The notes under the pieces were generated by a model. It ran no database searches. It had not been told where the DNA came from and saw nothing but the letters and a program-made list of their open reading frames with translations. A stretch of 48,850 nt of DNA, the filler included, from Basidiobolus ranarum (lineage: Eukaryota): the NCBI GenBank assembly GCA_040143965.1. It is 2 parts of 2 records of this genome, joined end to end, with 100 filler letters (N's around TTAATTAATTAA, not from the genome) between each part and the next. Parts side by side here need not be neighbours in the genome. Positions count along the whole stretch, not along the records: positions 24,511 to 48,850 come from JASJQH010000155.1; 1 more part is not named here. One strand, 5' to 3'. Made by a program: the position numbers and the translations under genes. Shown here one piece after another: positions 2-48,850 of the stretch (position 1 is the first letter of the stretch; every line of letters begins with the position of its first letter).

Positions 2-1936
2 ACAAGTGACTCTCAAATACCAACTGGCGAAAGTACAACTTCCACTAGTGCCACACCATCATCCACTACTGCGACCGATTCTCAAGTGCCTACCGAGTCT
101 ACCAGTGAAGAGAGTATATCTGGCACTAGTAACTCTTTTACCACTGGCTCCGTAACATCCACTAGTACAAATGACTCACAAATGCCAGTCGAGTCTACGA
201 ACGAGGAAAGTACAACACTCACTAGCATCTCATATCCCGTGAGTTCTACAACAATCACTATATCTAGTGAGTCTCAAATGCCAACCGAGCCCACGAAGGA
301 GGGAAGCATAACTCTCACTAGCACCTCTGATTCTATAGGCTCTACAACATCTACTATTTCTAGTCATTCTCAAATACCAACCTGTTCTAACAACGAGGAA
401 GGTACAACTCCTACTTGCAACACTCATACCAGCGAGGAAAGCACAACACTCATTAGTAACACAGTGAGCTCTGCGCCATCCACTACTGCTTGTGATTCCG
501 ATAGTGGTATCGATCCTACCAGTTCTGCAACAACTACTATTATGTATCCCTCACAATTACCGACCGAGTCCATCAGTGAGGAGATAACCACTCTCGCTAG
601 TAGTTCGGACCCCATAGTCTCTACAACATCCACTACCTCTAGTCAATCACTAAGTTCGACTAATGAAAGCACAACTCTCGATGACAACACCGAATGTACG
701 AACGCATCAACATTCACGACTACAACTTACTCACAATCACCTACACAGTTCATTAGTAATACCGATTTCACCCACACCACAGCAGCCACCACCACTAGCG
801 AGTCGCAAATTCCACATGAATCCACCGACCAGGAGGGTACCGCTGAGGAAAGACCAACTTGCACTAGCCATTCAGACTCTATGGGACAGCAAACAACTGG
901 TGGAGGTTGTGTAAAGCCGACGACAACTGCCAGCGATAGTCAAATAACAAGCACAAATATTCCTGCGCCCACTGATGGGGAAAGCCTACCTGATAGCAGT
1001 AGCTGTGAATCTATCTATTCATCAACAACTTCCACTGTGTCTCAACAATGTACCAAATCCTCAGATGAAGAAAGTTTAACTGGATCAGGCACATCTACTG
1101 AGGTTAGCAAATCTCATCAGTACATCTCGTCTACCGCAGGGCAACAGAGTGGATCTTCAGATATTTCTACCACTCCTGAGTCTACTTGCATGCCCACTTC
1201 AACTGCTGTGATTTCAACGGCTTCGGAGCCTCATGTACAACCAACGCAATCATCGCAAGTAAATGGATCTAATCATTCCACTGAAGAGCAAAAGGAAACC
1301 GTAACAATCACTGCATCTGATCTGCCTCTAAGGCCTACACAGTGTACCGACAATAGTATTTCTAATGAATCTACTGTCGAGGAGATGACATCTTTGACCA
1401 CTGCTGTTGTTACAGAGACTCATGTGAGTGAGAAGCCTACACCAACAGATACATGTATTCAACCTGCTCATAGCTTCGTCACCACTGTCACATACCCTGT
1501 TACAACCTACAAGACTGTTGAGTTCACATTCACCACTAATAATAATGTGTCTAATGACTGCCTCACTGACTCTACTACCAAACATGTGACAACATCCCGA
1601 TCAGCATCGACTAAAACGTGTACTACGAAAGCAAGCACTGTTAGTGCACATACTGATAACACTTTGTGTACTCCTGTAACCGTTACAGCAGCCCCGGTCA
1701 CAATTATGGCACCACCTGTTACCGTAACTATTACCTCTACAATATCCACTTCTCAACTGGTGGACGAACCTCAGGGTACAGATAAACTTTGTCAGAATGG
1801 TGTCTATAAATGTATTCACGCTGGATTCTCACCTAAATTCACACTTTGCTCTCATGGTAAGTTAGAGGAATACATTTGCTCAGCAGGCACCGTATGTAAA
1901 CCTTTAGGACAATCCATCGTATGCGACTGGCCATAG
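2..1936 (+). CDS. 5'-partial Ser/Thr-rich mucin-like protein with C-terminal Cys-rich chitin-binding (CBM19-like) domain; possibly the tail of a chitinase or cell-wall enzyme
   Basis: Frame is open from base 2. S/T-rich with degenerate 96-bp repeats (SQ[M/I/V]P motif at ~77, 173, 269, 365). Ends CQNGVYKC...FTLCSHG...CSAGTVC...IVCDWP, the pattern of fungal CBM19 tails. Confidence 0.75.
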   Translation, partial: TSDSQIPTGESTTSTSATPSSTTATDSQVPTESTSEESISGTSNSFTTGSVTSTSTNDSQMPVESTNEESTTLTSISYPVSSTTITISSESQMPTEPTKEGSITLTSTSDSIGSTTSTISSHSQIPTCSNNEEGTTPTCNTHTSEESTTLISNTVSSAPSTTACDSDSGIDPTSSATTTIMYPSQLPTESISEEITTLASSSDPIVSTTSTTSSQSLSSTNESTTLDDNTECTNASTFTTTTYSQSPTQFISNTDFTHTTAATTTSESQIPHESTDQEGTAEERPTCTSHSDSMGQQTTGGGCVKPTTTASDSQITSTNIPAPTDGESLPDSSSCESIYSSTTSTVSQQCTKSSDEESLTGSGTSTEVSKSHQYISSTAGQQSGSSDISTTPESTCMPTSTAVISTASEPHVQPTQSSQVNGSNHSTEEQKETVTITASDLPLRPTQCTDNSISNESTVEEMTSLTTAVVTETHVSEKPTPTDTCIQPAHSFVTTVTYPVTTYKTVEFTFTTNNNVSNDCLTDSTTKHVTTSRSASTKTCTTKASTVSAHTDNTLCTPVTVTAAPVTIMAPPVTVTITSTISTSQLVDEPQGTDKLCQNGVYKCIHAGFSPKFTLCSHGKLEEYICSAGTVCKPLGQSIVCDWP

Positions 1937-24410: not shown

Positions 24411-24510
24411 NNNNNNNNNNNNNNNNNNNNNNNNNNNNNNNNNNNNNNNNNNNNTTAATTAATTAANNNNNNNNNNNNNNNNNNNNNNNNNNNNNNNNNN
24501 NNNNNNNNNN
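24411..24510. other. Artificial contig-joining spacer (N44-TTAATTAATTAA-N44)
   Basis: A 12-mer with stops in all six frames is embedded in a 100-nt N run; the formin does not continue after it. Confidence 0.93.
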
Positions 24511-24728
24511 CATATATTATGATAAGCATTATTCCTAAAACGATGCCGGCAAAGATTTTGCTCGTAACTGAGATACATATTGCAGGGAAACATATTATTA
24601 CGCAAGGAAAGCAAGAAGCAAAATTTATTGACTGATTGTTAAGTACTATATTGTGCACCCCCCCCCCCACCTTTTTATACATGCCTTACTTGTATTGTGT
24701 GAATCATTCTTTGATATCACTAGCTCCT

Positions 24729-25184
24729 CTATTCCTCATTACTTCCAGATGAGGAACCTACTGCAGGATGTGAGACTGACTGTAATTGTCTCATATATGA
24801 TTCCAGTTGTTCTTGAAGTTCATTTTCAATATCATTTTCTGATGAATCATTGGTGAGGCGATTTGATATTCTTCCAAATAAATTGAGCTTTCTACTTTGG
24901 CTTCTGATCACATTTTCAGATTCGATAGAGTTTTGCATCACAAGTTGATAACTATCTACAATATTTGTTTGATTGACTCTCCAAACCCAAGCTTTGGCTT
25001 GCATTTCGACGTATGGATTCCACCAATTATCAGCAAAGATGACTACTGACGCCATTTGCAAATTCAGTCCGTATGCCCCGCACCTTAGATTAATCAGCAT
25101 CACTTTTATCCCGTTGTCTGGCACTGCTTCTGCAAACTCCTTGATGCGAGCAACTCTGACTTTGACAGTAGTACTCCCTTGGAT
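24729..25184 (-). pseudogene. SNF2-family helicase C-terminal (HELICc) exon, decayed
   Basis: After acceptor ttatcacag: IQGSTTVKVRVARIKEF...VMLINLRCGAYGLNLQMASVVIFADNWWNPYVEMQAKAWVWRVNQ...YQLVMQNSIE (motifs V and VI). The first Arg of motif VI is replaced by Trp. No intact N-terminal part seen. Confidence 0.8.
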
Positions 25185-25195
25185 CTGTGATAAAA

Positions 25196-26003
25196 ATGCT
25201 AAAAGTAAACAGGTTTTTATAAAAAAATTGCTCACATTTGTAGTGCACATTGAGATATGTATAATCTTATAACCCCAATAAATTCAAATGTGAAATATCA
25301 TTGCAGGGAATGTGTTATATGCATGCCAAAAGGTAGTATGTTTTTAAAAAGAGACTCATATTTGTAGTGCGCGTCAAGGGATGAAAAGTTTTTGTAACCC
25401 CATTAAATTCAAAAGTAAAAAATATCATGATGTGGTCTAAGTTATATGCACACAAAAAGTAAAGAAATTTTTAAAAAGAGGCTCACATTTGTAGTGTGTG
25501 TTGAGGGATGAGCAGTCTTTGTAACTCTTGTAAGTCAAAGGCAAAAAATAATGATGTGGTATCAGTTATGCATATGCCAAAAGTAAATATGTTTTTAAAA
25601 TGAGACTCACATTTGTGGTGTGCATCAAGGGATGAGTGGTCTTTGTAACTCCTATAAAGTCAAAGGTAAAAAATAATGACGTGATATCAGTTATATGCAC
25701 ACCAAAAGTAAATATGTTTTTAAAAAGAGGCTTACATTTGTAGTGCACATTGAGGGATGAGTGGACTTTGTGACTCCTGTAAAGTCAGAGATACAATATA
25801 ATGATGTGGTAACAGTTATACACACTATGGAAGTAAACAAGTTTTTAAAAAGAGGCTCATGTTTATAGTGCACATTGATAGTCTATCACCAATGTAGCCC
25901 CTATAAAATCAGGGGCAATACATAAAGGCATGTTTCCAGTACTATGCAGCTTGAAAGTGAGTATGTTTTTGAAATTATAGTGGGTTCTGTTGTGTGCATT
26001 GCT
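25196..26003. repeat. ~125-bp degenerate tandem repeat array (about 6 copies)
   Basis: Anchor CTCACATTTGTAGTG-like recurs at ~25231, 25356, 25482, 25606, 25731, 25856. Confidence 0.93.
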
Positions 26004-26372
26004 TTTATTTATATTATTTAGAATACCTTAGTTACAAATACATCACATTTTATATAACTTTTTAAATTTGTAGCACCTTTGTGCTGCACTGGTTACACAG
26101 CCCAAAAGTTTATTTTAATGACTATTTTGTTGTTTTGTATATAAATAAACATATATGGAGCCTAGTGCTAGTGATACGTCAATATTTGTAAAACATGAGT
26201 AGAAAGCTTTTTATCAACACTTTCAATATTTCTAGATTTGTAATATAATTGTAATGTTTCCAATATTCACTTTCTTCATTATTTAATTTTGTAATCCTCA
26301 CAAAGTTTTTACTAATATTACTAATTCCCATATAATAGTGACTTGAGTATATTGTGATAGAAGGGTGTACAT

Positions 26373-26439
26373 GGGGATTGCATCCCCCAAACCCTCTGCT
26401 TTCTTTTTATACTGGGAGGACTGCATCCCCCAGACCCCC
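26373..26439. repeat. Two GC-rich imperfect hairpin motifs (GGGGA.TGCATCCCCCA.ACCC)
   Basis: ggggattgcatcccccaaaccc (26373) and gggaggactgcatcccccagaccccc (26414) in otherwise AT-rich DNA. Confidence 0.75.
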
Positions 26440-26578
26440 TCTTTTCATCCTTACCCTTACCAGAACATCTATACCCACTCGAGTAACAATACTGAATGTT
26501 GGGTAGTAAGATGATTTTATTGGACACCAGATATTAGAAAGAAAATAGAAAAAATGCCGTTTTCAAAGTAAATGTTAT

Positions 26579-26595
26579 CCCAACCCTAACCCTAA
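26579..26595 (+). repeat. Short interstitial telomere-like repeat (CCCAA-CCCTAA-CCCTAA)
   Basis: cccaaccctaaccctaa at the boundary between decayed repeat DNA and the GST locus. Confidence 0.6.
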
Positions 26596-26817
26596 GCTCA
26601 TCACTTTCCATTTGGATAAACAGTCATGTAAAGATATGTTATTATATTATGTGGCTTGTACAGTCCATTTGTGTTAGAAATTTTGAACGATCCTTTCTCG
26701 AGTTGTACAATGCAATCGTCAAACAAATCCAATCTAATCGCTCTTTCCTCCGCAGCCGTAAACTTCCTTATTTTATTGTCGAACCTTCTCATTCCGCACT
26801 CATTCTTCAATCTGATC

Positions 26818-27758
26818 ATGGCCGCTCTCCCTCAACCAACTCAGGCAAGCTCTAACCACCTTTCCGAGCTTACAAAGAACCCTGACTCGTCTTTCAAAGT
26901 CTTGTACTATCCTATACATGGAAGAGCAGATCTTATCCGAACAATTCTTGCCTATAGCAGAGCCAAATGGGAGGATCTTGCTTTCGTAAGAACGGCCTTC
27001 ATTTTTTTCTCCAGCTAAAATTAGTTTAGCTGCTGTTTTGACATATCATTTTTCCTTCTTCTTCCGGTGTATAAACATTCCTTTATTTCTCTTATTTATA
27101 ATTTATAGGACTGGCCAAATCAAAAGGAAAAAACCCCTTACAAATGCGTCCCGGTAGTGTATGAAGAAACAAAATCTGGTGAAGTGCTTCAGCTCGCCGA
27201 ACAGCAGGCGATTGAACGATACCTCGCTCGCAAGTTTGGACTGCTTGGTGAAAATGCCTGGGAAGAACACCAGATCAACGAGCTTTCATCCAGTATTGAA
27301 TCATTAAAAACGGCATTTTTGCAAAGTCTTGGCAGTGTTGCCTTCGAAAAGCGCGCCGAGGCGCATGCGAGCTTTGTCTTAACAAAATGGGCCGGATTTA
27401 AAGAGATTCACGAGGCGCTACTGATCAAGAATGGCTCTAATGGGCACTACATTGGCAACAAGGTTGGTATTTTGGTTTTCCACTAATCTTTTATAGTGTC
27501 TCTTTCTTACAACTCTTTGGTGATGTTTGTTATTTAATTCAGTTTTCTTTGGCTGATTTCAAACTCGCAAACACTATCCAGAGATTGGAAGAATGGGTAC
27601 CTGAAGGCGCTCAGCCGTTCCCTGTCTCCGCTAGTGCCACTCCGGCCATTTGGAAAGTGTACAAGGGTGTTAATAGTCACTCTTCTATTGCTACTTGGCG
27701 CAGCTCACCCTTCTATGAGGTGTTGAGTGAAGGAACAAGAAAAAAGCTCAAGATCTAA
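26818..27758 (+). CDS. Glutathione S-transferase, 3 exons
   Basis: FKVLYYPIHGRADLIRTILAY | DWPNQKEKTPYKCVPVVYE...LAEQQAIERYLARKFGLLG...NGSNGHYIGNK | FSLADFKL. Introns 26986-27108 and 27463-27542. Confidence 0.9.
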
Positions 27759-28173
27759 ATCACTGAATATATTAGTAGTGCAGACATCTGTTGGTAAATA
27801 CTTGTATATCAACGCACTTGCCAAAAAATAAAGTATAGCACGTTAACCTGAGCCAATAATATGTATAATTCAGCAATTCACTTGACTTTAACATAAATAT
27901 CTTAAAAACGAAAGGAAACCATAGCCATCTGAAAAGTTTAATAACAGAAGCTAAGGAGGAAATTCATCAACCCCTTGTGGCAACAGACTAGTATCAGCTT
28001 GAGATATTTTTAAAACAAATCAAACCAGCTCGTGCATTGTTATCTCGTTAATGTCTAGCTCTTCGTTCATGTTATCTAATCCAAGTAGTTTTGATTTATG
28101 TAGTTTCTAATTAAACAGTATAAAAATCCAATTCATTTTTTTGTTCCTTCCTAGTCAACTCACAAATACAACT

Positions 28174-29060
28174 ATGTCAGAACTCCCTCAACCAACTGTG
28201 GCAGATTCTGAGCATCTCTCCGAGCTCACCAAAAGTACCGATTCGTTCTTCAAAGTATTGTATCATCCTATACATGGAAGAGCGGAACTTATCCGAACCA
28301 TTCTTGCCTACAGTGGAGCCGAGTGGGAGGAGCTTGTTCTGGTAAAATAATTTCTATTTTAAAGTTTTTAATTGTTGAGGTAACACATTTACCTCTTTAA
28401 CGGTTTATAGGATTGGCCAAATCAAAAGGGAATGACTCTCTTTAAATGCGTACCAGTGGTATATGAAGTATTAAATTCTGGAGAAGTACTTCTACTCGCA
28501 GAACAGAAGGCGATTAAACGATACCTCACTCACAAGTTTGGACTGTTTGGTACGAATGCCTGGTAGGAACACGAGGTCAACAAGTATACGTCCAACATTG
28601 ATGCCTTTAAATTATTGTTCTTACAATACGTCACGAGGGTGCCTATTGAGAGACGTGCTGAGGTTTATGAAAATTTCATCTCGAAACATTGGGCCTCATT
28701 CGTAGAGATTCACGAAACGCATTTGGCCAAGAATGGCTCTAATGGACACTACGTCGGCGACAAGGTTGATATTTTGCTTCTGTCCTCTTTGTTTATGTTC
28801 AATCTTCCTCATGCCTCTTTCGCGGCATATGATTTTTCATTTAGTTTTCCTAGGCTGACTTCAAGCTTGCAAACGTTCTTCACAGACTCGAAGAATGGGC
28901 CCCCAGAGGTACCCAACAATCTCCAATATCCGCCACTACCGCTCCAGGTATTTGGAAGGTGTATGAAACTGTAAACAGTCACCTTAACATTGCTACCTGG
29001 TGTAGCTCCCCTTCCTATGAAGTACTCAGCGAAGGAACAAGAAAGATGTTTAAGATCTAA
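28174..29060 (+). pseudogene. Tandem GST paralog with in-frame nonsense codon
   Basis: Same exon structure as the upstream GST. TGG TAG GAA CAC at 28561-28572, where the paralog has TGG GAA GAA CAC. Confidence 0.82.
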
Positions 29061-29490
29061 ATTACTGAATTTAATTTGGGTTGCCGTTATCTGTAGGTTT
29101 TAAGATATGTACATTCAAAGAGATTTCCCACACTTTGAGCGTATTAGACTACACCAACCAAACAGTTATACCATCGAGAACGTTTATAACGATTATGATG
29201 TAAAAGCTAAGAGTCAGGAGAGATGTAATTGACTGCAAGTACTCCAATCCAAACGATATAAAAGTCGGCAGTAGAGGCAAGCCTTTCACATAGTAGCCAA
29301 GTTAATTAAAAGCCACGGGATAATTAGATGGATGAGTAAGCACAAAGTTTAGTGCAATATTGATATAAGCAGAACCACTCTTCTCTCAATGCTATTTATT
29401 ATGCTCTTGAGCACGTTGAGAAAATACTTCACATTTGTATAAAAGTTGACTGCTCTCTATTTCTATTCTCCATCGAAAACTTGACTCATC

Positions 29491-30039: not shown

Positions 30040-30756
30040 TCAAAGTGGTGATTTTGGAAATTCATCTAAAGTTAATTTAAGGGGAGTAAATAAGGGTCTA
30101 TATGTTGAATTATCACTACATAGCTCGTCCCAGCTAACCCAGCGCCATTCTGCACAGCAGTGCGGCTCCATTGCCTATTGAGAGTTTTGGGTTATTATAG
30201 GGTAGAGGCTAGTTTAATGTCATATGAATTGGGTACCTTTGGAATAGGATTTTCTTGTATACAAGTTCCTTTCATGAGTATCGAAACATAGTGCTCTTGG
30301 TGTTGTGGAACTATACTATTGACCACAGTAACTAACGAAACGTCTTTTAGCTCCAAGCCAGTTTCTTCATACGTTTCGCCTGTTTGTGAGTAAAAAATAA
30401 GCCATTAAACATTGAATATAGAAGGACAGAGGTTTATATACTACATACGAACAGCACCGGCTTGGAAACTTTCCCCAAATTCTAAATGGCCTATAGTAAG
30501 TTTGAATATACACTGTTCATATTTAAGAAAGTACTAGAGTAACTTCAAAAGAAAACTTACCACCAGGAATCTGCCACTCACCAAAACCTATCTTGCCAGG
30601 CTCTATTCTCTTACCGACAAGAAACTTCCCAGTTGTAGGATGACTTACAAAAGCACCGATACCAACTTTAACTGTGGAAGCTAGTGGAGTGTTTATGGAG
30701 CTATTAGCTCGAATAAAACTGGTTGGAAATTTCAATTTGTTTAGCAGAGCACTCAT
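30040..30756 (-). CDS. Nudix hydrolase (NUDT15/MTH2-like), 4 exons
   Basis: VKVGIGAFV...FLVGKR...WQIPG|GHLEFGESFQAGAVR|ETYEETGL (Nudix box)...HYVSILM...MEPHCCAEWRWVSWDEL...RPLFTPL. Confidence 0.88.
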
Positions 30757-31141
30757 TGCTTGGTGCAAATTTTCAAACTCACATTTAAAGTAGCAGCTCT
30801 TAGATAATCTAGTTATTCATAGCTAATCAGAAGTTAGCATAGATTATTAGGTGGTACAGGTTCAAGCCACTTAGGGTTAGCCACCAACAGATCCTAGCTA
30901 ATATCTTCAATAGCAATCAGTTATGTGTTGGTCTGCATATTTATTATACATTAATATTCGCTAGTGATCTACATGAGACTTGGGAAAAGGAAAGGAAGTA
31001 GATGATTTGATGTATGAAAAAGGAAATTGAAAGAGGCACTTGCTAAAGCAAGCTCAGGTAAAAACCTAGTAATAACTTTTCCAATTGTCTATATTATTTA
31101 TCGTGAAACTATATGGAACAGTTGGGTGCATCAACACCAAC

Positions 31142-32522
31142 TTAACGACTCTTCTTCTTCATCCATTTCTTTTCCTTTTGGAATCGACCTCCAGACTTAC
31201 GGCCAGATTGTGAGCCACCGTCAATCATTCCGTCGAAGAGCTTGCTTGTGTTGTTGTCAGCATGTCTCATACGCTTTCCAATGGCCTAAAAATGAATGTT
31301 AATGCCAGGTTCGTGCAGATATAGCTTACGTTCATATGTACCTGAGGAGGACCAGAGTGATCGTCGTCATCTTCATCATCCTCGTGAAGCTGTTGTCTGG
31401 TCTTCTTTCTCTTCAGAAGGCTAAGTGAATCCTTCTCTTGTTCTTCGACTGCTTGAATACCAGCGAGGTTGGTGAAGTCATTAAGATGTTCGAATTCATC
31501 TTCGAAGCGTTTGACACCGCCCTTTCTTATCTTGTTGAGGTCCTTCTTAGACAATGTCATACGGATGAAGTTCTCTTCTTCGTAAGTTTCTCTCTCCTTC
31601 ATCTTTCTATCGTCTTCGTTCGACATTCCGATACCCTCATTAATTCCACTGTAAGCATTAACCTCCTCTGGACGATCGTCATATTCAGCGATAAGATCCT
31701 GCATCATACGAGACTTGGAAGCTCTTTGAAGAAGACGAGCTTGCTCACGATCTTGTCTAGACTTAGCTGTTGAGCCCTCATCGAAATGAACAGGAGCCAA
31801 CTTAGGTGCTCTATATAAACCAGAGCTAGCGGCCTCTTCCTCTTCTATAAAATGATTGATAACCAGTTAGCAAACGATCGACACAAACAATCAGGTGCAT
31901 AGACAATCCAATGAATACCTTCTTTAGATTTGGCATTTTTATCAACCAGATTCTGTGGGTTAGGCTTGAAAGCGAAGGGATCACTAATTCCACCCTTTCC
32001 AGCTTCCTCATTAAGACCCTCAATACCAATGGTAGCTGCACGTACAAGTTTATCAATTTGATATTTGAGTTTCTGTTCGACTGGTTTCATCTTTTCCAAA
32101 ATTACTCGAAGTTGAATAAGATCGTCGATAACTGCGTGGTTTTCCACCGATTTTCCATCAAGCTTGAGATAGATAAAGAAGGCGATATTGGTGAGATATT
32201 GAAGTAAAATATCTAGTAAAAATAAAGTTAGGACTAAAGGGTTTAATCGGACTCGGTAAAGAAAACTCCAATAACTTACGATATTTTACATCGAGAAAAC
32301 TGACACCCTTTTCGACGGGAAGTTCATTTTTGACGACTCTAAGAAAGTTGAACATCACTGTAAATATCAAGTACACTAACATCTCGGTTATTTTCATAGG
32401 AAAAGGAAAGCTTACTTGGACTGTAATGGGTTGACTTGTTTCTTGACCTCTTGAATAACAGACTTCAAATCGCCAAGGATTTGAACGAATTCAGAAGTTT
32501 GTGGATGAACTTCCAAGGTCAT
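31142..32522 (-). CDS. LCP5: Lcp5/neuroguidin (Sas10/Utp3/C1D family) U3 snoRNP protein, multi-exon
   Basis: KGVSFLDVKY, LRVILEKMKPVEQKLKYQIDKLVRAA, DPFAFKPNP, GLYRAPKLAPV, YEEENFIRM; basic C-terminus. Confidence 0.9.
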
Positions 32523-38202: not shown

Positions 38203-41200
38203 ATGTTAGGCGAGTCATACGATCCCGACCTATTGAAAGAGTTTTATCCAGCTCTATTTAAAAAGTATCCTATGCTTAAACCAGGTGAGAGAGCAAACCT
38301 TTGAGCCAACTAGCGTTCCAGGAAATACTTAACTCTATTTTTTTAGCTACTATACATGCTGCGTTAAGTGAGGTTGATTTTGACCAAGACGCGGCGTTTG
38401 AAGTATTGGATTTATTAGCAACAACCAAGGCCAAACCAAATTTGATTAAAAAACGTACCACTTCTTCTTCAGTATTCGAAGTGGTTATCACTAAAAAGCC
38501 TAAAAGTGAAAAATACCAAGACTTTACGACATTCTTGGGTGGTCTTTCTACTCCCGAAACCTCGGTAGAGAATGTATTTACCTCGAAATTACTTCGATTC
38601 TCATACACATTTCTAAACTATTTATCAAATTAGGAAACTCTTACTAACTCTCCTAAAGTAAATAAGGGTAAAGGGAAATTAGTTGAGGTTAGTGCGGGGT
38701 TTATTTCTATTCTATCGAAGGGGATGTTAAATTTATAGCTTCTCTAACTAGTACCCAGTGAATTCAACCACCAAGTCTAATCCGGAAACCACGGTTGAGA
38801 ACCAAATCACACCACCGATTGAGGATGATGAATCCACCTCAGCCTCGCAGACTGAATCTTCAAACGAATCATTACCTTTGTCTAAAGCGTCTAAAGGTAC
38901 ACGAAAGACTCGTACCAATTCAATCAAATCATTCCTAGAAAAGGGGAAGACCGAGAGCAAGGCCAATGCTATCGAGACCAAATTAACAGTTAAATCTCCA
39001 CTTGAAAAAGGCAAAACCGCAAGCAAGGCCAATCCCACTGAATCCAAACCAACCTTCAAATCCTCTGCGTCCAGATATGTCTGTCCACCAGAGGAACTTC
39101 AGGAAGACGAAAATCTGGAGATCTTCGGGGAGGATCTGTCGGAAATTGATGAGAATCACATTCCTTGTCGCACACTCGACAATTTTATCATTTATGATGT
39201 TGCAAAGAACAATCAAATAGTCAGTATTGAGAAGATTGACGATGAAGGAAGAGAATTAAGAGCTTCAGGTGTGGTTAAAACCATCATGGTATCTGACGAT
39301 GGTCCAGTAAACACCGGGAACGCTGTGGATGAGGATCAAGATGACGAGGATTTTGAGATTGACGAAAACGGAGATTTAAACCCAACCAACGGATTCAGTG
39401 GACAGGCAGTTAAGCTCAGCACCATCTTCTATTGGGAGGTTCAATTAGTGGATGACGGTATGAGTGCCATCTGGCTACGTACTCAGTACTCCTGGTACAA
39501 ACTGGTGCGGCCCATTGAAGAGTACGAGAAGTATTATCTCCACATATTCAAGAAGATTCGACTTGCCAACATGCTGATCACTAAAATGGTAAACAATACT
39601 GCGGCTACATATCAGGATTTCTTATCCACCATGAACCAATCTTTAGTCGGCTCTTCAAACACCGATGATATGCGTATCAACTTCTATGAACGGGACATCA
39701 TCAACAATATTGATTATATCTGCGAGGAGATCAACGTTTACCTGGAGGATCAAGACGATTACTCCATCTTCAATAGTCCATTGCTTCATAAACTCACTGA
39801 GATCCGTAACAAAGATGAGGACGGAGGGATGTTCCGTGAGCCTCAACCCATCGACGTTCGTGATAGTGCTACTCGTAAAACGATCCGTAAAATCAAGAAA
39901 TCCGAGCCCGAAGAGAATCCCGCATGTGTTACCCCGCATATCAGTAACTTAGCCAAGGGATTGTTCACCCGACATATTGTCATGTCTAAACATCTCGCTG
40001 ATGCCGTAGCAGAGATGGAAGAAGCCAAGCAAGCTGGAGACAAGGATACCCCCGTCGATATTGAGAATGTCATTGATGTGATCGCCCCTCAAAAAAAGAG
40101 AGCAAAATCTTGCAGAGGCATGAAGATCTCTTGGGTCGGCGAAAGTACGGGAAGCCTTCGTTCCAAAACATATTACTCCCATGTACAGGTTGGTGAGACT
40201 GAGTTAACCATCGGGGATTGTGTGTTGTTGGATACTCGCCCTACGGAGCCAAAATATGTCAAAATTCAATACATGTACCAGGATGCCTTTGGAGTGAAAT
40301 ATTTCCACGGACGTACTTTGATTGGTGGTAAACAGACCGTTTTAGAAGAGGTTTCTCATCCTTTCGAGCTTTTCTTAGTAGATCAGTGCGATACTTGGAA
40401 TATGACATCAATCGCTGAGAAATGTGATCTGAAATTCCTTGAACCTGATGAGGCAGAGCCACAACTGCGACCCCATCCCGACTTCTACTTCTTTAGGTAA
40501 GTGATAAAGTGAATGTTTTCCCATTCAAACCATTGACACATTGATCTTCTATAGATATTGGTACGATCCCGCTTTCCCTACATTCGAGGATATATCCAAA
40601 CATGAGCTAACACCCGAGGGAAATAAGAGATTAAAGGGATGTTATTCATGTGATCGCGAGCGTGAAGAACAAAGGAAGAAAACCCCTCATCCAGTAAACA
40701 AAAAAGGAGTTCGTGGTTTTCTTTACCACGGATTTGAGTATCATATCTCCGATTACGTTTATCTTCTACCTTCCACATCGTATGGGCCCTATGAGATCGG
40801 TCAGATTGTAGAGATAATGAGTTCTCGCGACGATATGAGTGACTTAAAGAGTGTGAAGGTTCGCAGTTTAGTTAGATGTGACACTCTCTTGACCAAGTAT
40901 AAGTCAAAGACTCCCCAAACCAATTTCGACAAGAAAGATGCCAGAGGGCTGTTTGTTACTGAACAATACCTTACTGTGAGTATCGATAAATTAGAGGGCA
41001 CATGTTGGGTTCAACACAAAGATTTAATTCCAGATCTGGACTCCTATAAAGACCAAGCGGACACTTTCTACATTGCTGGACAGCGCACACATAGATCAAA
41101 CAGTGAGCCACTTGAAGAGGTGCCCGTTTCTTCCATTCGTACTTGTCAAGTGTGCAAGTCTGCTCGTGAAGAAGCTAACAGAAGATCGAAAAAACTTCAA

Positions 41201-42646
41201 CAAAAGCGTAAACCTTTAGCCGCATTAGATATTTTCTCTGGTTGTGGTGGTCTTACATGTGGCTTGGAGCAATCCGGTGTTGTCGAAACCAAGTATGCAG
41301 TTGAGTTTTACTCCAGTGCTGCCCTGAGTTTTGAAAAGAATTTTCCTGAGGCCAAAGTCTATAATCAGTGCGCCAATCTATTGCTCGATCGTGCCATCGC
41401 AGTCCATCGTGGGGAAGTACTTCCACCTGTCAAGGATCATATGGACCGCATAATGCCTGAAATGCCAGCTCCTCATGATGTTGATTTCATTTACTGTGGA
41501 CCACCTTGCCAAGGATTCAGTGGTATTAATCGGTTCAAAAAGGCCAATGATGTTAAGAACTCTCTTATCGCCACTTCACTGAGTTACGTGGATTTCTATC
41601 GACCCGAGTATTTCCTTTTGGAGAATGTTCGAGGAATGTTGGCATTTAAACTTGGAGGAGAACAAGATGGTACCAACAGAATCAAAGGTGGAATAAAAAT
41701 GGGAGTGGTGAAGTTCATATTGCGTGCTTTGACCTCTATGGGTTACCAAACAAGATTTAGCTTACAGCAAGCTGGACATCACGGTCTTCCTCAGAGTCGT
41801 CGCCGTTTGTTCTTTTGGGGAGCTAAACGAGGCTCGAATCTACCAGATTTCCCACAACCATCCAACTGTTTCCCCAAGCAAGGCACCCTTAGTATCAACC
41901 TACCGAATGGAAGAAATTTCTGCGCAATTAAACGAACCACAGGACATGCACCTCATCATCCGGTTACGGTAGCTGATGCGATTTGTGATCTACCTGGATT
42001 CGAATATCGTAATCCTGAAGTGGTTTACAAAGACGAGAATCCCAGAAAGAGCATCTTCAAGAAGCTACCAGTTGCAGCCGGTGGCTATATTGGTACCATG
42101 GAGATGGAGTACACCAATCCACCTCTGAGTGAATATCAACGACAACTTCGTAGAAAAGCCAAGAAATTACACAACCATGTTACCAGAGGGTTTAATAGCC
42201 TCACAACAGAACGTCTGTGTAGAGTTCCCATGTGGGCAGGAGCAGATCATTCCAATCTACCAGAGAAGCTGAAGCCATGGTGTTTAAGCAGTCCGGATTC
42301 GGCAGCCAGCAGACATAATGGGTGGAAGGGATTATTCGGAAGATTGGATTTTGATGGCCACTTTCAAACCGCATTAACGGATATGCAACCAATGGGTAAA
42401 CAAGGTACCGTGATACATCCAAATCAAGAGCGTGTACTTACCGTGAGAGAATGCGCCAGAGCCCAAGGTTTCCCGGACCATTTTGTATTCTATAATTTCA
42501 ACAAACAAGACGTAAAAGATCTGCACCGACAAGTAGGCAACGCAGTACCTCCACCATTAGCTGCTGCACTTGGCAGACAATTAAGAGCCGCCCTGGCTGA
42601 GACTGTCTCTGACTCAGATGATGAAGAGGTCGTAGAAGAAGCCTAA
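38203..42646 (+). CDS. DNMT1: DNMT1-type DNA (cytosine-5) methyltransferase: CUE-like N-terminus, RFTS, two BAH domains, catalytic domain
   Basis: Catalytic motifs LDIFSGCGG, GPPCQGFS, LENV, PQSRRR, RVLTVRECARAQGFPD, GNAVPPPLA. RFTS-like RTLDNFIIYD...IWLRTQYSWYKL. BAH regions IGDCVLL and ISDYVYL. Intron 40497-40554. Short 5' exons from ATG 38203 are inferred from splice signals. Confidence 0.92.
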
Positions 42647-44073: not shown

Positions 44074-44656
44074 CTTGGAATATTGCCAGAAAGATTAAGA
44101 TTTCAAGAAGCTGAAGTGGCGAAGTTGTGATCTATTGACACAAAGGGAAGATACAATGAGAGCACGAAGGACAATGGGAAGATTACCTGTATTTATTTAG
44201 CGCAATGACGAGGGTACCTAAAGTGGGGGTATTTACTTTATTTGTTTGTGTGTAACATTTCTATCAGTAATTTCATGATTCTTCACATTCATTTGTGAGT
44301 TTGAATCAAATAAATGAAAATCATTTAGAAACTTTTGATCGGCTCGGAAGACACTGCTTCAAAAGGACTTTAATATATGATATATACGGAAAAACACATG
44401 TCTAATCTACCGCAATGTAAGTTTCATTCATTGAAGTTCTAATCTGATAAAAAGCATCTGATAAGCGAGGTAATGCTCTTCCATATTGGAATCAATCTTG
44501 GCATCATTTTGGGCTCTATTATAGAAACCTGTCATATATGATAATGAGACAAAGTAGCTCTATAAAGAAAACTAACATGTGAATAACAATGTGGCAAGTT
44601 GTATCTTTGCTGTCTTGAAACCCTTAGATTGAGGTAAGCATATTGCAGATGGTGTT

Positions 44657-45180
44657 GAGATTAGCATAGCCTAAACATCTATATAGCCATGTATAGCTTA
44701 GTATTTAGCTGTTCCATATTGAACTAAGATATCACCTCAAGAGGAATTTACTTAGAAGTTTAAAGATACATCAATTCTGAGAACTTGTGCTGGAAGCCCC
44801 ACACTTTGCACACATGTTTCGGGCACCTTCCTTAACACATTCTACATGTTTGTTTGTTTACATCTTGACAAAAATATAAATATCTACTGCCTACTCAATA
44901 AATCAATAAGCAAAAACCACCAATTCTTCTAGTTCAAAAAACCACTTCCAACAAACTCTCGAAATACTTCAACAGATGGTGATGTGATGGAGATGTGTTC
45001 AGTATATGCATATATGCCAAGTGCAAGCATGTATATTTATGTAAACTCTGAGATATTTTATAGGTTGTTCTTGTAGATTCAACTAGTAGTGAACTTTCTA
45101 TAGTTTTTAACTGGTCTTTGTGACGAGTCTTTATGATATCTTCAGTGAAGAAATTGGCTTTAGGGAAAACTAGCAATGGA
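44657..45180 (+). mobile_element. Decayed dispersed repeat, copy 1; probable LTR-retrotransposon (Ty3/Gypsy-like) integrase remnant
   Basis: Nucleotide similarity over ~300 bp to ~47977-48320 and (inverted) to 48721-48850. Stop-riddled frame GIYLEV*RYINSENLCWK...QKYKYLL...KTTSNKLSKYFNRW*C resembles integrase Zn-finger and rve spacing. Confidence 0.55.
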
Positions 45181-45713
45181 GTGTGAATTAATTCCGACTA
45201 CATCACAAATATCTATTTCTTGCACTAATCAAATTAATTAACTAAGGGTTTAAATTAATGCACTTCAGTGATATTTCACCATAATATTTGTGTTTCGAGA
45301 AATCTAGTACTAATGGTTATCCCGTAACTGAAGAATATTCCTTGTTCGCAGGTTGCTATTACATTCGAGATACCGTGTACTTGACAGAACCTGACGTGAA
45401 GGTGTACAGAAGGATTTGTTAAACTGATTTTAATCCCCATATTAATTAACATTGCTACTCAAGCAGCGCTCAAACTTAGTGCCTATCCTATAGAAAGGTG
45501 TTCTATGGTTTTGGAAATTCTGAATTCCCATAAATGGCTACTAAATACCGGATTTCCATATTTTTATTAATTTCACCGAAACGTAGGACGTAACGTCCAC
45601 CAAGAGAACTGAGTTAAATGAGAATCCTAGCTAGGTAAAATTTATCTACTGTCAGTGTTGCTGCTTGGTTAAATACCTTTCTTCACATTGTTTTTACAAA
45701 CAAAATATTTGCT

Positions 45714-47067: not shown

Positions 47068-47094
47068 TTAGGGATATTAGGGATATTAGGGATA
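47068..47094 (+). repeat. 9-bp tandem repeat TTAGGGATA x3 (telomere-like core)
   Basis: ttagggata ttagggata ttagggata. Confidence 0.8.
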
Positions 47095-47287
47095 TTTTAC
47101 ACTACTGTCTTCAATAGCCAAGTCAGTAAGACTGGATTAATGCTTCAATAGGGAAATATGTCTCGTGCCATATCAACAGTCATAATTACCAATATGAATT
47201 ACTTGCAGAATTGCTTGCAGCAGTGAATATCGACTGACATATTTCAAGCAATTAATGGATGCAGTTGCACATGATCAAACTCTGCTC

Positions 47288-47351: not shown

Positions 47352-47976
47352 CTACTGGTAGTACATGTTGCTTATATATTTTATGTGGTGGCTTTAGTTA
47401 GAACTTCGACCTATTAGATGACATACTTTACGATTTTGTATGAACTATGTGTGCTAGTACCAATCGAATCTCTCGGCATCAATCCCTAATGGATAAGAGT
47501 TTATCATAATATTAATTATTAATGTGGAAAGAATTGACATATTAGAATTCTGTTATAACTTCATTTATACAAAGAAAAATGCTATTTGTCAGCAATCAAC
47601 GCTTTGATAGTAACTCAAGTATTTTCTTCCTCTAAATGCTTCATAATTTATTGTATTTTAATACTTTGATCAGAAATATAGGTGGTTACAGACTTGTTGC
47701 ATTTCCTTTATAATAGCAAATATATTCATCAAAATGTTCTCTATGCCAAGAATATTTCTGACAGCTTTACAGATTGTATTGAAGATGATAATATGGAATG
47801 AGGCTGCACAGAAATCTTTGAAACTGGGATTAAAAGTCAGTGGAAGTAACATTTCAGACATACATATCTGAGAACTATGAAATTCATATGCAAGAATATG
47901 ACATGCACAAGAATAGAAAATAATATGTACGCATGGAGACTTGCTCGGTAGTATAGTGTTTGAGATTCAATATATA

Positions 47977-48520
47977 TGAGTAGCATGGCCTAAACATCTA
48001 TATAGTCATATATAGCTTAGTACTGAGTTATCTTATATTTCATTAAGATATTATCCATTATTCTCATGAGGAATTTACTTAGAATATTGACACCAACTTA
48101 GAAGTTCTCAGATATCTAGATTTTGATAACTTGTGCTAGAAGTCCCAAACTTTGCGCACATGTTTCTGGGACCTTCTTAAAAACATTCTACTTGTTAGTT
48201 TGCTTACATCTTGACAGAACTGTAAATGTCAACTTTCAACTGAATAAATCAATAAATGAAAACCATCAATTTCTCTAATTCTCCAAACCACTTCCAGCAT
48301 GCTCCCAAATACTTCAACAATATCCAGCCTCACTTGGCTTTACTGCAATATATACAGAGATATTCAGTTGAATAAGGCTCACTTAGATGTAGATAATACT
48401 TACTATAAAGGAAATAAAGCTCATCTCCAGCCACTTTGATTTTTGATTTAGATATTTTTCCACCAACATTCAGTAACTTATGCAAATGGCAGGAGAAAGA
48501 TCATATCAGCAATAAGTTTT
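47977..48520 (+). mobile_element. Decayed dispersed repeat, copy 2 (integrase-like remnant)
   Basis: Shares tagcat.gcctaaacatctatatag, gaggaatttacttagaa, acatcttgaca and aaaccacttcca with copy 1. Frame EVLRYLDFDNLC*KS, with ANG downstream. Confidence 0.55.
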
Positions 48521-48720
48521 TTAGCATTAATTACTGAGAAACAGCTTCTTTTATATATATACATGAAGTGCCAGTAGCTGTCAATTAGTTATTCAGATGT
48601 CACCAAACTTCACAAGTCCAGTGATATAAAGTCATATTGTAAGAATAAATACATGATGAAGTATCACAGTTAAACTCTTGAATATCTATACATCATGTTA
48701 CTGTTAAAGTATATCGGGAT

Positions 48721-48850
48721 CCCGTTGGAAATGGTTTGGAGAACTAGAGAAATTGGTGGTTTTCACTTATTGATATATTGAGTATTCAATTGACATTTAT
48801 AGTTTTGTCAAGATGTTAATAAGCTAACAGGTAGAGTATGTTAAGGAAGG
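48721..48850 (-). mobile_element. Decayed dispersed repeat, copy 3 (inverted, runs off the window end)
   Basis: Reverse complement ccttccttaaca...acatcttgacaaaa...aaaaccaccaatt...ccaaaccatttccaac matches ~44826-44952 and ~48172-48297. Confidence 0.7.

Follow-up and report, generated by a model that had tools for sequence, protein, structure and literature searches.

A TG/CA footprint of CpG decay in a non-coding tandem array of Basidiobolus ranarum, consistent with cytosine methylation of a repeat-derived block

A short non-coding tandem array in Basidiobolus ranarum has lost nearly all of its inferred ancestral CpG dinucleotides, which have been replaced by TG or CA site by site and independently in each copy. 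The array lies in a window of 48,850 nucleotides, filler included, that joins parts of two records of assembly GCA_040143965.1, and the window also encodes an intact DNMT1-type cytosine methyltransferase. The footprint probably reflects long-term CpG methylation of a silent, repeat-derived block, followed by deamination of 5-methylcytosine (5mC). It is of an ordinary and well-known kind, and no new mechanism is revealed. The array nevertheless shows CpG hypermutability site by site, with unusual clarity and in a fungal lineage that has been little studied, and it adds a data point on the reach of DNMT1-based repeat defence among early-diverging fungi.

The tandem array and its CpG-derived sites

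The array occupies positions 25199..25948 of the window, about 700 bp from the start of the second contig (features given here without a strand are unstranded). It is non-coding and consists of six good units with a period of 125 bp, u1 to u6, which start at 25199, 25323, 25450, 25574, 25699 and 25824. TRF reports the 125-bp period over 25314-25875, with 4.5 copies, 79% matches and a score of 622. The units were cut at a conserved anchor and then aligned with MAFFT, which gives the six units and a degenerate seventh (25949..26010); the seventh aligns only in part and retains the GTGTGCATTG version of the motif described below. Pairs of units are 0.61-0.82 identical in the MAFFT alignment, corresponding to 18-40% divergence.

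Other identities for the array were considered. An Rfam scan of 24511-27000 at E-values up to 1 gives no matches and ARAGORN finds no tRNAs across the window, which rules out an RNA gene. Each unit contains a 32-nt imperfect palindrome, found by a repeat search, with TTTTTAAAAA at its centre and arms that are 72-75% complementary (for example at 25693-25750). CpG-derived sites are present in both arms of this palindrome. A structured hairpin was rejected on folding one unit as DNA, which gives z = 0.03 against shuffled sequences. A degenerate pattern of the unit core has no matches among metagenome contigs.

The first-pass annotation of this DNA quoted five copies of a motif that varies between units, CACATTG at 25240 and 25740, CGCGTCA at 25364, TGTGTTG at 25491 and GTGGTGTGCATCA at 25615, and all five coordinates and strings are exact. 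It derived three sites in each unit from CpG; these three are real, and the alignment raises the number to six. The adjacent group of three is found at 25246..25252 in u1 (alignment columns 45, 47 and 50), and its homologues in u2 to u6 start at 25370, 25497, 25621, 25746 and 25871. These columns read CG, TG or CA only, in all six units. The further three sites are found at 25304..25325 in u1 (columns 106, 122 and 126). Their homologues lie at 25431/25447/25451 in u2, 25555/25571/25575 in u3, 25680/25696/25700 in u4, 25805/25821/25825 in u5 and 25929/25945/25949 in u6. At column 106 CG is left in u4 alone (25680), and at columns 122 and 126 it is left in no unit.

The six site column pairs comprise 36 cells, which hold 16 TG, 15 CA, 3 CG and 2 other dinucleotides. 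CG has thus been lost in 33 of the 36 cells (~92% of the inferred ancestral CpGs), and TG and CA are balanced at 16:15, in keeping with strand symmetry. TA is found in none of the cells, against 6.7 expected if both bases changed independently (P=6e-4). A site that has been hit is no longer a CpG and its second base mutates at the background rate, which explains the absence of TA. Immediately 5' of the sites stand G, G, T, A, A and A, with no fixed neighbour on that side.

The number of column pairs containing both TG and CA was compared with a context-free null, in which each unit's own substitutions were reassigned to random sites of the same base in 5000 runs. Nine column pairs contain both, the null mean is 2.96, and none of the 5000 simulations reaches 9. 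No enrichment is seen in the mirror classes: AC with GT occurs 3 times against 3.48 expected, TC with CT once against 2.42, and AG with GA twice against 4.9. The units were also tallied by substitution context, a check proposed in the first-pass annotation, and transitions are indeed enriched at the inferred ancestral CpGs. Inferred CpG bases have 0.43 transitions per cell, compared with 0.13 for the remaining C/G bases and 0.06 for A/T (Fisher P=4e-7), a contrast that is in part circular, since the pattern itself served to choose the sites. A tree-free lower bound counts the columns that have changed at all, and these are 12/12 for CpG against 20/34 and 20/79 for the other two classes (P=0.009).

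The retention of 3 of 36 CpGs, set beside 13% change at other C/G positions, makes CpG about ninefold hypermutable; this figure is hand arithmetic from the retained CpGs and the other C/G change, in a sample of six units. Transitions at the other C/G positions are themselves raised over those at A/T (0.13 vs 0.06), so some of the decay is explained by a general pressure from GC to AT. When units are grouped by shared derived state, 28 of 50 pairs of groups overlap without nesting. The hits are therefore recurrent and independent, and were not inherited through duplication of the units. Together with the nine TG-and-CA column pairs, this agrees with the earlier proposal that CG>TG and CG>CA changes arose separately in each copy.

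A TpA ancestor of the sites is excluded: three of the six still have CG in some unit and none has TA, and the rate of A/T transitions is only 0.06 per cell.

Extent of CpG depletion in the window

The stretch 25196-26003 contains 3 CpGs (25370, 25372 and 25680) where 20.6 are expected, an observed/expected ratio (O/E) of 0.15, and its O/E values for TpG, CpA and GpC are 1.47, 1.58 and 1.31. For the array itself, 25199-25948, the same 3 CpGs stand against 19.1 expected, and the O/E values are 0.16 for CpG, 1.44 for TpG, 1.57 for CpA and 1.20 for GpC. The description of CpG as nearly absent from the array is therefore accurate, with 3 CpGs against 19-21 expected.

The array is not, as had been supposed, the whole of the depleted DNA. 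The depletion extends ~730 bp past it on the right, and the CpG-poor island as a whole spans 25121..26680, a 1.56-kb block. This island contains 7 CpGs against 42.0 expected (O/E 0.17, with TpG at 1.39 and CpA at 1.29), and its right part taken alone has a CpG O/E of 0.16. Half of the island, 25949-26680, has no copy detectable by self-BLAST within the window. The island is AT-rich (GC 0.33). Its end at 26680 is ~140 bp short of the start codon of a plus-strand gene, an ATG at 26818. Measured against the background O/E of 0.78, the array has a Poisson tail probability of 2.3e-4 and the whole island one of 6e-8.

The block was also considered as a recognisable transposon, and this was rejected as it has neither a Pfam domain nor terminal repeats. 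No convincing terminal inverted repeats are found around 25121-26680. Among 12 of the short ORFs (at least 35 aa) of the three repeat-bearing islands no Pfam family scores above the cut-off, and three matches at chance level are seen (E 0.017-0.046).

Outside the islands CpG O/E is 0.78 in ORF DNA and also 0.78 in non-ORF DNA, the latter with a GC content of 0.36. The overall value is 0.75-0.78, and the four CpG-poor islands pooled within the window give 0.21. CpG is retained in several controls, with an O/E of 0.68 in a coding 96-bp tandem repeat that has diverged to a similar degree (region 60-650), 0.78 in the DNMT1 gene, and 0.71 and 0.80 in the two members of a duplicated gene pair. The comparison of repeats with genes that had been suggested as a check thus gives, within the window, 0.16 for the array against 0.78 for ORF DNA. 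CpG had also been called common in the flanking genes; this holds for ORF DNA at large and fails for the left neighbour, a degenerate SNF2 fragment with an O/E of 0.50.

The second CpG-poor island (44361..45280, 7 CpGs against 25.4 expected) contains a dispersed repeat, and the third, at the end of the window (47481..48850, 6 CpGs against 32.4-32.8 expected), contains the same repeat family. By self-BLAST 47978-48319 matches 44659-44974 at 74%, and 48172-48322 forms an inverted pair with 48699-48850 at 80%, the two arms lying ~380 bp apart. The family is a non-coding dispersed repeat with copies 74-80% identical, and the inverted pair has a foldback or MITE-like arrangement. The ORFs of 47481..48850 contain no Pfam domain. 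A three-copy alignment of this repeat gives only a weak site-level signal, with CA/TG at 4 and CA/CG at 5 vs GC/AC at 6 and GC/GT at 8.

A weaker CpG-poor stretch is found at 30461..31180, with 6 CpGs against 23.3 expected, TpG at 0.99 and CpA at 1.14. It has no self-BLAST match within the window and no TpG excess, and is therefore a counter-example to a strict rule that CpG depletion follows repeats.

The DNMT1 gene and explanations of the decay

The DNMT1 mentioned in the first-pass annotation is present as an intact gene with the order RFD-BAH-BAH-methylase, at 38752..42646 on the plus strand. It is formed by the ORFs 38752-40500 and 40508-42646, joined across a single 56-bp GT-AG intron (40498-40553). 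Pfam matches are DNMT1-RFD (1.1e-20), BAH twice and DNA_methylase (1.8e-46). The product aligns in collinear order to residues 93-1266 of a 1284-aa Ambispora DNMT1, with 54% identity in the catalytic half, and the motifs DIFSGCGG, GPPCQGFSG, ENVRGM and GNAVPPPLA, which include the catalytic PCQ and ENV motifs, are conserved in the alignment. Its best relatives are the DNMT1 proteins of Glomeromycotina, Mucorales and Zoopagomycota (50-54% identity), and Ascobolus Masc2 is matched at 40% identity. A zf-CXXC domain gives no match in the gene at E-values up to 0.01, and the listed fungal DNMT1 relatives have PF12047, PF01426 and PF00145 only; the protein is therefore of the fungal Masc2/DNMT1-RFD form and not of the animal form. 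The gene lies 13 kb from the array, a proximity without known meaning. DNMT1 is a maintenance enzyme. Basidiobolus is one of the early-diverging fungi rich in 6mA, a group in which 5mC is said to be very scarce.

For the related B. meristosporus, the supplementary table of PMC10538959 lists DNMT1, two Dim2-like genes, UHRF1 and two HELLS genes, and shows no DNMT3 or DNMT5. The table has columns for DNMT1 and Dim2 and none for RID, and its 5mC column is empty for this species. The excerpt of B. meristosporus DNMT1 given in the same source differs very little from the motif-I region of the window gene. Our full-text literature search found no 5mC methylome of Basidiobolus.

The explanation that we consider probable is that the array and its right flank form a silent block of 1.5 kb, non-coding and derived from repeats, in which both strands would for a long time have carried CpG methylation. 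5mC would then have been deaminated in every unit separately, so that CG became TG or, where the opposite strand was hit, CA. Methylation of the block would most likely be maintained by a DNMT1-type methylase, for which the intact copy encoded in the window is a candidate by its presence. The footprint thus points to methylation of the array DNA in the past or at present, and the combination of TG/CA footprint and intact DNMT1 gene suggests that Basidiobolus has had CpG methylation directed at repeats. What the first-pass reading predicts at the sequence level is all observed, namely transitions at CpG sites, TG/CA balance and, within the window, depletion confined to islands.

Only 3 CpGs are left in the array, so its present-day methylation may be nil. 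It is possible, though we lean against it, that the footprint is a historic scar only, with no methylation now on the array or perhaps in the genome, and with DNMT1 having another role or acting elsewhere. This would be a variant of the methylation-and-deamination explanation and not an alternative to it. The 3 remaining CpGs would be the sole substrate, the units are old by their 18-40% pairwise divergence, and the introduction of PMC8298701 describes early-diverging fungi as very low in 5mC. A low genome-wide level is, however, compatible with methylation confined to repeats, and continuing use is favoured by the DNMT1 gene itself, whose reading frame and catalytic motifs are undamaged and line up with those of its relatives. 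More speculatively, and in our view rather unlikely, Basidiobolus may possess an active CpG methylation system, tightly confined to repeats and composed of DNMT1, UHRF1 and HELLS, perhaps with Dim2-like priming. Such a system would sense even short local tandem arrays free of transposon genes by a MIP-like, premeiotic sensing of duplicates, and would silence DNA to within ~140 bp of the neighbour's start codon.

Two further explanations dispense with slow deamination of methylated repeats. An active RIP- or MIP-like process, in which duplications are sensed during the sexual cycle and a DNMT-family enzyme drives bursts of C-to-T change at CpG, would suit the near-complete loss on duplicated DNA (33 of 36 cells). 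A CpG-directed RIP-like bias has been proposed in basidiomycetes, for example at TpCpG in Microbotryum in the account of PMC4352252, and the two Dim2-like genes tabulated for B. meristosporus (PMC10538959) could be taken in its favour. Such a process seems improbable here, as the six sites have no fixed 5' neighbour, expressed duplicates of similar divergence retain their CpG (O/E 0.68-0.80), and the depletion runs 730 bp beyond the array into DNA without a detectable copy. Explanations that involve no methylation at all are the least credible of those considered, and we give them very little weight; they comprise chance, a CpG-poor founder unit, a TpA ancestor changing to CA and TG, and the composition of an AT-rich promoter. 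The block is indeed AT-rich (GC 0.33) and lies upstream of a gene, and the stretch at 30461-31180 is CpG-poor without repeats. Yet non-ORF DNA of similar GC (0.36) keeps an O/E of 0.78, and 0 of 5000 context-free simulations match the observed count of TG-and-CA column pairs. A CpG-poor founder is unable to yield TG/CA polymorphism at one site, and descent from TpA would demand an A/T transition in nearly all cells, when the background of such changes is 0.06 per cell.

Known systems and the neighbourhood of the array

RIP of Neurospora and other ascomycetes prefers CpA, and results in an excess of TpA and a loss of CpA and TpG. It is recognised by a high TpA/ApT and by a (CpA+TpG)/(ApC+GpT) index below about 1.03. 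The array resembles RIP in the irreversible C-to-T mutation of duplicated DNA as a form of genome defence; its trend is the opposite, with CpA at 1.57 and TpG at 1.44. In the array the (CpA+TpG)/(ApC+GpT) index is 1.29 (background 1.17-1.20) and TpA/ApT is 0.92 (contig background 0.85). CpA-directed RIP was rejected on these two values, and the index of 1.29 upholds the separation from RIP that the first-pass annotation had drawn.

The same annotation presented the footprint as a distinctive genome-defence signature, which is an overstatement, as decay of CpG to TpG in repeats with a Masc2-like DNMT1 is already in print (PMC4352252). In the account of Amselem et al. 2015 (PMC4352252), transposons show a CpG-to-TpG signature in fungi with only a Masc2-like (class IIA) DNMT1, including Microbotryum, Melampsora and Puccinia, and also in Tuber. 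As described there, these fungi share with the array the C-to-T change at CpG in repeats, a lack of a CpA or RIP signature, and a methylase of the Masc2/DNMT1 type, and the common explanation is methylation followed by 5mC deamination. The present case differs from that account in its lineage, Basidiobolus (Zoopagomycota), and in its target, which is a short local tandem array without a transposon gene. The loss in the array is also far more complete than the 10-40% of copies given for those fungi.

In the rust Austropuccinia psidii, 5mCpG is targeted to transposable elements (TEs) with historic deamination (bioRxiv 10.1101/2025.05.29.656941). The likeness to the array, as far as that report is represented here, lies in a CpG depletion ascribed to deaminated 5mCpG in repeats, with insignificant RIP indices and spared genes. 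The A. psidii study has direct methylation calls and TE age classes, whereas the array is a mutational footprint in one window. Decay of CpG in methylated repeats is also described for vertebrates (Alu, satellites) and plants in section 1.2 of the review PMC13297926. The chemistry is the same, with a CG deficit, a TG/CA excess and strand symmetry, and hypermutability is given as roughly tenfold in vertebrates and plants, compared with the estimate of about ninefold for the array. Methylation and decay are genome-wide in the vertebrates of that review; in the Basidiobolus window they would be restricted to small islands, the overall O/E being 0.75-0.78.

An artificial joint between contigs of 24,410 and 24,340 bases lies at 24411..24510 (N44, TTAATTAATTAA, N44). 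A formin gene (Pfam Drf_GBD, Drf_FH3) is cut at this joint inside its proline-rich region, and because of the joint this left-lying gene is no true neighbour of the array. The true left neighbour is an orphan 3' fragment of an SNF2-family gene at 24729..25190 on the minus strand, which matches Pfam Helicase_C (4.5e-8) at profile positions 43-109 only. The boundary of the fragment is exactly the first unit of the array. In an alignment with PDB sequences the fragment reads KAWVWRVNQ where Snf2/Sth1-type remodelers read QDRAHRIGQ, a position that we take to be helicase motif VI. No upstream SNF2 exons are found among the ORFs of 25150-26800. Longer relatives are limited to two weak matches (41-42% identity), hence there is no parent gene for comparison, and the use of the fragment as a datable pseudogene was rejected. 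It is probably a piece of a pseudogene, left by rearrangement or captured by a mobile element.

To the right of the island is a pair of tandem duplicate genes on the plus strand, at 26827-27795 and 28183-29098, with 68.5% DNA identity; the first of them is the gene that starts at ATG 26818. Pfam searches with single exons of the pair give no match, and by eye both look glutathione-S-transferase-like. Two direct repeats of 29 nt each (GGAYTGCATCCCCCARACCC...) occupy 26375-26446 in the CpG-poor right flank, 43 bp apart and ~400 bp upstream of the neighbouring gene. A telomere-like motif, CCCTAACCCTAA, is found at 26584-26597, upstream of the gene that starts at 26818. Another, TTAGGGATA, is present as 3.2 repeats at 47068-47096, and both motifs are internal to the contig. 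Elsewhere in the window, an acetyl-CoA synthetase gene shows 92% identity to proteins of Basidiobolus ranarum and B. meristosporus, as expected for DNA from Basidiobolus or a very close relative.

The 96-bp coding tandem units used as a control above lie at 172-410, within a long Ser/Thr-rich open frame (2-1936, plus strand). This frame matches no Pfam family, and by its composition it resembles a mucin-like wall or secreted protein.
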